Shown in pieces: positions 1 through 3,000 of a DNA stretch of 64,000 nucleotides (its first letter is position 1; each line of letters opens with the position of its first letter). The DNA comes from Escherichia coli (GTDB taxonomy: Bacteria; Pseudomonadota; Gammaproteobacteria; Enterobacterales; Enterobacteriaceae). Location of the stretch: NCBI RefSeq assembly GCF_045037415.1, contig NZ_CP173438.1; one strand, 5' to 3'. Made by a program: the position numbers.

Positions 1-3000
1 CGGCTAACGACGGTAAGCAAACCCCCATGCGCGGGCATCCGGTTTTTATCGCTCAACACGCCACCGCGACCTGTTGTCGCGGTTGTCTGGCTAAGTGGCA
101 TAACATTCCTCAGGGGGAAGCGTTAAGTGAGGAGCAACAACGTTATATTGTGACGGTAATCTATCACTGGCTGGTTATACAGATGAATCAGCCATGATAA
201 TTACGGAAATCGATAAAATGGCATTCATTAGGTATCTTTAGTTGCCGCCGTTGTCAGCGAACATGCTATCCTTTCTAAGAATTTACTTATTGCGTTGAGA
301 TAATTGCCACCCGCAATTGTATGGACAGATAATTAATGCATGTACAGCCCATTTCAACTTTCCGTTTGTTCCAGGAAGGTCATCTGCTACGTAATAGCAT
401 CGCTATTTTTGTGCTAACCACGCTGTTCTATTTTATTGGTGCAGAGTTACGGCTGGTTCACGAACTTTCTCTTTTCTGGCCGCTGAATGGCGTAATGGCG
501 GGGGTGTTTGCCCGCTATGTCTGGCTTAATCGACTGCATTACTATGCGATCAGTTATGTGGCGATGCTGGTTTATGATGCCATAACCACCGAATGGGGGC
601 TGGTTTCACTGGCTATCAATTTCTCCAATATGATGTTTATTGTTACCGTCGCCTTACTGGTCGCGCGGGATAAGCGTCTGGGAAAAAATAAGTATGAGCC
701 AGTAAGTGCCTTACGGTTATTTAATTACTGTCTGCTTGCCGCATTATTATGCGCTATTGTCGGGGCGATTGGTTCGGTCAGTATTGATACTCTGGATTTC
801 TGGCCTTTGCTTGCCGACTGGTTTAGTGAGCAATTCTCAACGGGCGTGTTGATCGTGCCTTGTATGCTGACGTTGGCAATTCCTGGAGTGCTGCCGCGCT
901 TTAAAGCAGAGCAGATGATGCCTGCTATCGCGCTTATTGTGTCGGTTATTGCCTCGGTAGTCATTGGCGGAGCGGGGAGTCTGGCGTTTCCGCTCCCTGC
1001 ATTAATCTGGTGTGCAGTGCGCTATACGCCGCAAGTAACATGTCTGTTGACCTTTGTCACCGGCGCTGTGGAAGTCGTACTGGTGGCAAATTCGGTGATT
1101 GATATCTCGGTCGGTTCGCCGTTCTCCATTCCGCAAATGTTCTCCGCACGTCTCGGTATTGCCACGATGGCGATATGCCCAATTATGGTTTCCTTTAGCG
1201 TGGCAGCGATCAATTCGCTAATGAAGCAAGTTGCGCTGCGAGCCGATTTTGATTTTCTGACCCAGGTTTACTCACGGTCCGGTCTTTATGAGGCGCTGAA
1301 AAGTCCATCGCTGAAACAGACACAACATCTGACGGTCATGCTGCTTGATATCGACTATTTCAAAAGCATTAACGATAACTATGGACATGAATGTGGCGAT
1401 AAAGTGTTAAGCGTGTTTGCCCAGCATATTCAGAAGATTGTCGGTGATAAGGGGCTGGTGGCGCGAATGGGCGGCGAAGAATTTGCTGTTGCAGTGCCGT
1501 CTGTGAATCCTGTCGATGGCCTGCTAATGGCGGAAAAAATCCGTAAAGGCGTTGAACTGCAACCGTTCACCTGGCAACAAAAAACGCTTTATCTCACGGT
1601 AAGTATTGGCGTCGGTAGTGGTTGCGCATCGTACCGAACGCTGACCGATGACTTTAATAAATTGATGGTCGAAGCCGATACGTGTCTGTATCGCTCGAAG
1701 AAAGATGGGCGCAACCGTACCAGCACTATGCGTTACGGTGAGGAAGTTGTCTGACATCTTTATTTACTCAGAGCGAATTAAATGCAATGTGTTCTACCAC
1801 TTTATGATCCAAGAAAAGGCCTGTTTCCTCGATTAAACCATGATCCGCGCCACACTTTTCTCATAAAACTGCTCATTAATCATCAGGAGTTGATCAAAAC
1901 AGGGGTTCGACGTATTAAAGTTTGCTAACCTGTCGTACCAATTCAAACAGGTTGTATGACTAATCAGAAGGGAACCCATTGTGAAAACACTAAATCGTCG
2001 CGATTTTCCCGGTGCACAGTATCCAGAACGTATCATTCAGTTTGGTGAAGGTAACTTCCTGCGCGCCTTTGTTGACTGGCAAATCGATCTCCTGAATGAG
2101 CACACCGATCTGAATTCTGGCGTGGTCGTTGTTCGTCCGATTGAAACTTCATTCCCGCCGTCACTGAGCACGCAGGATGGTCTGTATACCACCATTATCC
2201 GTGGCCTGAATGAGAAGGGTGAAGCGGTCAGCGACGCGCGTCTGATTCGCTCGGTTAATCGTGAAATCAGCGTCTATAGTGAATACGATGAATTCCTGAA
2301 ACTGGCTCACAACCCGGAAATGCGCTTTGTTTTCTCTAACACCACCGAAGCGGGTATCAGCTACCATGCGGGCGATAAATTCGATGACGCGCCAGCGGTA
2401 AGTTATCCGGCAAAACTGACCCGTCTGCTGTTCGAACGTTTTAGCCATTTCAACGGTGCGCTGGATAAAGGTTGGATCATCATCCCGTGTGAGTTGATTG
2501 ACTATAATGGCGACGCGTTGCGTGAACTGGTGCTGCGCTATGCGCAAGAGTGGGCATTGCCTGAAGCATTTATTCAATGGCTGGATCAGGCTAACAGCTT
2601 CTGTTCTACGCTGGTGGACCGTATCGTTACCGGTTATCCGCGTGATGAAGTGGCTAAACTGGAAGAAGAACTGGGCTACCACGATGGTTTCCTCGACACC
2701 GCTGAACACTTTTACCTGTTTGTGATTCAGGGGCCGAAATCCTTAGCGACTGAACTTCGTCTGGACAAATATCCGCTTAACGTGCTGATCGTTGACGATA
2801 TTAAACCGTATAAAGAACGCAAAGTGGCAATCCTCAACGGTGCGCACACCGCGCTGGTGCCGGTGGCGTTCCAGGCAGGGCTGGATACCGTAGGTGAAGC
2901 GATGAACGATGCTGAAATTTGCGCATTCGTTGAAAAAGCCATCTACGAAGAAATTATTCCGGTACTGGATTTGCCACGCGATGAGCTGGAGTCTTTCGCC

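Follow-up and report, generated by a model that had tools for sequence, protein, structure and literature searches.

The dgcF locus and its product

The DNA analysed here is a stretch of 64,000 nucleotides (nt) from the Escherichia coli contig NZ_CP173438.1 (the window), and the element under study is dgcF (formerly yneF), the gene of a diguanylate cyclase (DGC) located at positions 336-1754 of the plus strand. The window belongs to E. coli but not to K-12. The gene is flanked by yneG, which ends at 197, and by uxaB, which starts at 1981. The same gene order (yneG, dgcF, uxaB) is found in K-12, where the gene is named dgcF, and the C-terminal 315 amino acids (aa) of the window protein share 98% identity with the K-12 product. 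An earlier note, made from the sequence alone, had described an open frame of 472 codons beginning with an ATG, and the listing of open reading frames (ORFs) gave the same frame (ATG, 472 codons plus TGA). Moreover, in a genome 100% identical to the window, the Prokaryotic Genome Annotation Pipeline (PGAP) calls exactly 336..1754 as WP_000558459.1, a "sensor domain-containing diguanylate cyclase".

The results presented here are best read jointly, with a probability of about 0.9, as indicating that 336-1754 encodes an intact, full-length inner-membrane DgcF that is translated from ATG336 and combines a divergent MASE1 domain with a GGDEF domain, and that the K-12 form is a deletion remnant. 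The essentials of this picture have already been published (Richter 2014, PMC4287979; Sarenko 2017, PMC5635695). The additions made here are small and concern the coordinates and frequency of the deletion, the MASE1 assignment, a predicted core resembling the S-components of transporters, a conserved palindrome and a candidate sigma-S -10 element. The DgcF proteins of enteroaggregative E. coli 55989, O104:H4 and enterohaemorrhagic E. coli O157:H7 (PMC4287979) are products of the same gene; they have a hydrophobic N-terminal part of some 300 aa and a GGDEF domain. In these non-K-12 proteins the active site (A-site) is intact and there is no I-site, and they relate to the K-12 allele, with its 5' deletion, just as the window DgcF does.

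The catalytic domain is clearly recognizable. The GGDEF domain covers residues 303-461 (1242-1718, plus strand) and matches the full PF00990 profile (1-161) with an E-value of 4.5e-41 and 140.7 bits, compared with a cut-off of 23.8; TIGR00254 is matched with 130.6 bits against 37.4. The A-site motif GGEEF lies at residues 379-383 (1470-1484, plus strand; GGC GGC GAA GAA TTT), within the sequence RMGGEEF at residues 377-383, and is invariant in the orthologues. The pattern of substrate and metal residues, D-x-D..K..N-D..G-H..D, is also intact (LLDIDYFKSINDNYGHECGD at residues 336-355) and invariant in the same proteins. The allosteric RxxD I-site, a feature of only a subset of GGDEF cyclases, is not present in the GGDEF domain, where the corresponding position reads GDKG. 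For the uropathogenic E. coli (UPEC) strain CFT073, a published table gives the yneF signature as KNDHDRGGEEF, with "GK" at the I-site (PMC3484386).

Regarding its distribution, the dgcF locus was found by megablast in 5,414 of 5,426 complete E. coli genomes, among them several from clinical isolates that match the window at 100% identity. The 472-aa form is the dominant cluster in the protein database (9,487 members), its main cluster being 97-98% identical to the window protein. Full-length orthologues of 472-482 aa are encoded in E. fergusonii (86% identity to the window DgcF in the N-terminal domain), Citrobacter amalonaticus (about 82%), and Enterobacter cloacae and Lelliottia (about 72% each). 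The order glsB, yneG, dgcF, with uxaB further downstream, is kept in all four other genera. Since full-length orthologues occur in the same neighbourhood in these four genera, the long form is the ancestral one, from which the K-12 form derives.

The interval between dgcF and uxaB differs among these relatives. In Enterobacter (L005, 4560-5525) and Lelliottia (L006, 4630-6658) it carries extra diguanylate cyclase genes and a GNAT acetyltransferase gene. The extra cyclases are of the GAF-GGDEF type, with a MASE2-GGDEF protein in addition in Lelliottia, which makes up a small DGC cluster. In C. amalonaticus only the acetyltransferase is found there.

Start codon and the 498-bp deletion

The start codon ATG336 (336-338, plus strand) has a homologous ATG in five genera and is the sole ATG, GTG or TTG upstream of the conserved residue F9. 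An in-frame TAA is present at 330-332, two codons upstream, and therefore ATG336 is the most upstream start possible. The variation among the five genera is informative about where coding begins. Codons 2-8 vary freely: in seven aligned columns, which include the invariant ATG, 6, 5 and 6 are variable at positions 1, 2 and 3, respectively. In codons 9-40 the variable columns are 16, 11 and 28 of 32, and in codons 41-100 they are 15, 10 and 51 of 60. Pooling codons 9-100, the third position is variable in 79 of 92 codons versus 21 of 92 for the second position. Residues are thus conserved from F9 onwards with an excess of third-position changes, which means that coding starts before codon 9, where ATG336 is the only candidate in E. 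coli.

Some observations speak against this start. The earlier note had seen no obvious Shine-Dalgarno (SD) sequence, and this was correct: in the 22 nt upstream, the best pairing with the 3' tail of the 16S rRNA reaches -3.0 kcal/mol (GGA at 323-325, ten nt from ATG336), when the median is -2.5 for random 22-mers of the window and -4.0 for the first starts of ORFs of at least 250 aa. Hence, the SD of ATG336 is no better than random sequence. In addition, a sigma-70-like pattern (TTGCCA at 304-309 and GATAAT at 328-333) would place the transcription start at the ATG or beyond it if it were used, and no experimental start-site or transcription start site data were found for any non-K-12 strain.

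The weak SD, the promoter-like match whose -10 ends at 333 and would yield a transcript without ATG336, and the legacy K-12 annotation, which begins at a TTG, could also be explained by an internal start (TTG366, GTG411, ATG495 or the K-12-type TTG807), the upstream frame being open by chance or forming an untranslated leader. Nevertheless, F9, F12, L18, R19 and N20 are kept in the five genera with synonymous third-position changes, TTG366 reads CCG or CCT in Enterobacter and Lelliottia, and GTG411 and TTG807 fall within helices 1 and 6, respectively, of a confidently modelled domain. Patterns like the one at 304-333 are equally frequent in shuffled sequence, so it was rejected as an argument against ATG336. 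Furthermore, the TTG start of K-12 is a product of the deletion only, and the K-12 protein is undetectable. An internal start is consequently regarded as extremely unlikely, and translation from ATG336 is retained.

The origin of the K-12 form is evident from the pairwise alignment with K-12 DH1, which shows a clean gap corresponding to 271-768 of the window, with a junction free of ambiguity. This 498-bp deletion comprises 65 bp upstream of the gene together with the ATG and codons 1-144. What is left in MG1655 is b1522, of 948 nt and 315 aa, in agreement with the earlier note, which gave the K-12 product as annotated shorter. Its annotated start, a TTG equivalent to codon 158 of the window gene (807-809, plus strand), lies inside helix 6 and is the first possible start in the remnant frame. 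The failure to identify an internal ATG fitting that length is likewise accounted for, because the K-12 start is this TTG, a by-product of the 498-bp deletion. The suspicion that the annotated start might be wrong does not hold, given that the RefSeq/PGAP call begins at 336 itself and that the shortness of the K-12 product is due to a deletion and not to the choice of start. Newer PGAP runs mark the K-12 dgcF as a pseudogene "missing N-terminus". In previous studies, K-12 yneF was described as 5'-truncated with a misannotated start, the TTG being an artefact (Richter 2014, PMC4287979), and no DgcF protein was detectable in K-12 (Sarenko 2017, PMC5635695).

The 498-bp segment was found in 4,195 of the 5,426 complete genomes (77%), and K-12-type genomes align only from position 769 on in the megablast search. 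The junction was searched with a probe of 50 nt centred on it, which seeds only in carriers of the deletion (a 100-nt probe cannot tell the two alleles apart), and was found in 1,216 genomes (22%), in all cases on the chromosome and nearly always with 100% identity. Pigs, river water, chicken meat and patients are among the sources of the carriers. Both classes together make up 5,411 of the 5,414 genomes in which dgcF occurs. One identical junction in 1,216 genomes and two classes covering nearly all genomes with the gene mean that this was a single deletion event. The 315-aa "DgcF" of K-12 is a non-expressed remnant of this single ancestral 498-bp deletion.

In the literature this 5' deletion is called K-12-specific; in the present data set its junction is shared, as stated, by more than a thousand complete genomes. 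Other dgcF variants were also seen. The protein database contains many truncated DgcF forms, as well as predicted chimeric proteins (P0001, P0003, P0058 and P0122) in which the N-terminal domain, 98-100% identical to that of DgcF, is joined to HipA-like or bestrophin (YneE) sequence. Such forms may reflect additional rearrangements or frameshifts at the locus in certain E. coli isolates, or else errors of assembly. Five dgcF matches are located on records labelled as plasmids.

The N-terminal membrane domain and its relationship to MASE1

The N-terminal part of DgcF is predicted to be a membrane domain of ten helices (residues ~17-295; 384-1220, plus strand). The AlphaFold2 model has a mean predicted local distance difference test score (pLDDT) of 91.2 and a predicted template modelling score (pTM) of 0.86, with helices at residues 17-37, 49-60, 67-84, 89-115, 125-147, 155-179, 191-210, 213-229, 232-251 and 267-304. 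Seven Kyte-Doolittle hydrophobic peaks are present in this half of the protein, and clusters of positive residues fall on alternate loops, which fits an N-in topology with ten transmembrane (TM) segments. According to the model, both ends of the domain would face the cytoplasm, and the last helix (267-304) would leave the membrane and continue into the cytoplasmic GGDEF domain. The earlier proposal that the multi-TM half belongs to the protein as a sensory domain is thus borne out by the ten modelled helices and by homology of the MASE type.

A domain search of this region for a MASE-type domain had also been proposed, and its outcome was mixed: there is no direct Pfam match, whereas many homologues do match MASE1. 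A phmmer search with the DgcF N-terminus against 1.8 billion representative proteins gave 406 relatives, most of them of 460-500 aa and with the same two-domain layout. Among 64 diverse relatives, MASE1 (PF05231) was matched by 43 at an E-value of 0.01 or lower, with a best value of 3.2e-11. The output domain is GGDEF in 62 of the 64 and HisKA-HATPase-REC, with or without Hpt, in the other 2. Two relatives, P0199 (36.2 bits) and P0204 (41.0 bits), exceed the curated MASE1 cut-off and cover profile positions 3-285 of 299; both are direct phmmer matches of the DgcF N-terminus (2.9e-19 and 1.9e-18, respectively). Moreover, a hidden Markov model (HMM) of the N-terminal domain of the family scored 38.7 bits on residues 12-251 of E. 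coli DgcE, when 300 composition-matched shuffles reached at most 9.7, and hhalign aligned the DgcF family with DgcE at an E-value of 2.8e-5 over 215 columns.

Not all the evidence goes in this direction. The search of DgcF residues 1-300 with PF05231, whose gathering threshold is 29.8 bits, gave no match even at E-values up to 10, and most of the MASE1 matches of the relatives are below the Pfam gathering score. The hhalign probability for DgcE was just 74%. The N-terminus of UhpB gave no signal, either with hhalign (full-length family alignment against a single sequence) or with the family profile, and that of PdeF was not detected by the family HMM, though PdeF is listed as a MASE1 protein in the literature. 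In addition, the CFT073 study assigned MASE1 to yegE, yfeA and yfgF, and not to yneF (PMC3484386). With both sides weighed, the homology searches indicate that the N-terminal domain of DgcF is very probably a divergent MASE1 domain. As for SAYSvFN, the lone result of the Pfam scan of residues 1-300 (0.043), it was considered a chance match.

DgcE (YegE) has been described with ten TM domains in its first 300 residues and a predicted MASE1 domain. The likeness to DgcF lies in an N-terminal polytopic region, about 300 aa long and made up of ten helices, to which signalling outputs (GGDEF, histidine kinase) are attached. Unlike DgcE, DgcF has no PAS domains between the sensor and the GGDEF domain, and compared with MASE1 proper (PF05231) it stays below every Pfam threshold. 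It also presents motifs specific to its clade: FWPxN, WFSEQFST and GG(A/P)G..FP.PAL.WCA. The N-terminal domain of DgcF was stated to occur in no other E. coli protein (Richter 2014, PMC4287979), and the MASE1 assignment softens this claim of uniqueness.

Regarding how the domain could work, a signal at the level of the membrane may change the packing of the MASE1-type helices. The altered packing would be passed on along the continuous last helix, shift the register of a presumed dimer and bring two GGDEF domains together, and the paired domains would then condense two GTP into cyclic di-GMP (c-di-GMP) without product feedback.

[quoted passage not shown] Foldseek of the DgcF model against the PDB returned nothing with an E-value below 0.4, and a profile search of the sequences of solved structures with DgcF gave no match. 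Sequence identity to the S-components RibU, BtuM, ThiT, FolT, BioY and CbiM is 7-14%, and DgcF has ten helices where these have six. In contrast to them, DgcF has no ECF module and is fused to GGDEF, its gene neighbours being glsB, yneG and uxaB; no transporter role is proposed. Pfam may group MASE1 and the S-components in one clan already. MASE domains go unmentioned in a 2024 publication about the S-component fold. If the relationship were true, MASE1 sensors would join the 5TMR-LYT kinases as receptors of the "transceptor" type, with vitamin-binding transport subunits as their ancestors or relatives, and binding of a small ligand within the membrane would be expected of them.

Upstream region, expression and implications

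The region between yneG and dgcF contains conserved elements that could take part in the control of the gene. A palindrome, ATAATTGC-N5-GCAATT(G/A)T, lies at 300-320, which is 16-36 nt upstream of the dgcF ATG, and is removed by the K-12 deletion. Its arms agree in E. coli, E. fergusonii, C. amalonaticus and Lelliottia, save for one G/A change in the 3' arm of E. coli; the palindrome is degraded in E. cloacae, and its 5-nt spacer varies among genera. It could be an operator, given its fit to the LysR-type T-N11-A pattern and the proximity of the LysR gene yneJ, or it could form a hairpin in the 5' untranslated region. A conserved ATGGA follows directly. The ATG at 321-323 is in the frame of dgcF; it meets a TAA after three codons in E. 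coli and is open in E. fergusonii and C. amalonaticus. A structured regulatory leader at 279-350 was also considered and found unsupported, the RNA fold being no better than that of shuffled sequences (z -0.76), and an Rfam scan of window positions 1-2100 at E-values up to 1 gave no RNA family.

Further upstream, a candidate extended -10 element with C at -13, TG-c-TATCCT, is located at 264-272 on the plus strand. It takes the form TGcTATCCT, TGcTATTCT or TGcTAATCT in four of the five genera, and the K-12 junction (270|769) falls inside it, leaving TGcTATCTT. Such a C at -13 is typical of sigma-S promoters, and the sequence fits the sigma-S -10 pattern. The conservation of a putative -10 of this type would fit the RpoS-dependent expression reported for the gene. 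Neither the yneG-dgcF nor the dgcF-uxaB interval (window 150-2000) was found to hold an intrinsic-terminator-like site, and there may be read-through from sad-glsB-yneG into dgcF.

Concerning expression and function, DgcF is expected to be produced at low levels because its SD is weak, and a dgcF lacZ fusion showed very weak, mainly RpoS-dependent expression (Richter 2014, PMC4287979). In Shigella flexneri, DgcF (possibly in its 472-aa form) raises c-di-GMP, as measured by liquid chromatography with tandem mass spectrometry (LC-MS/MS), a GG-to-AA mutant does not, and the protein affects acid resistance and invasion (PMC11327459). In CFT073, the deletion of yneF decreased biofilm formation and adherence to bladder cells, and both were rescued by the exogenous DGC WspR (PMC3484386).

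The very weak fusion, the weak SD, the loss of the 5' end in 22% of the genomes and the many truncated or chimeric variants in the protein database may also suggest that dgcF, though intact, is in effect silent or in decay in the lineage of the window and on its way to becoming a pseudogene, as in K-12. This seems very unlikely, since the frame of 472 codons is open and has a strong signature of purifying selection across genera, the 498-bp segment is kept in 77% of the genomes, and deletion phenotypes have been reported in UPEC CFT073 and S. flexneri. An intact and presumably functional dgcF in the window is therefore preferred.

Copying the K-12 annotation (315 aa, TTG) to other E. coli truncates a real 472-aa sensor enzyme, and the results obtained in K-12 on "YneF/DgcF" are about a dead allele. 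This allele is a common natural polymorphism (22%, one junction) that goes beyond laboratory K-12 strains. Furthermore, the MASE1 assignment and the possible S-component-like core offer a first lead towards the signal by which this cyclase is controlled, an enzyme with reported effects on biofilm formation and adherence in UPEC and on acid resistance and invasion in Shigella.
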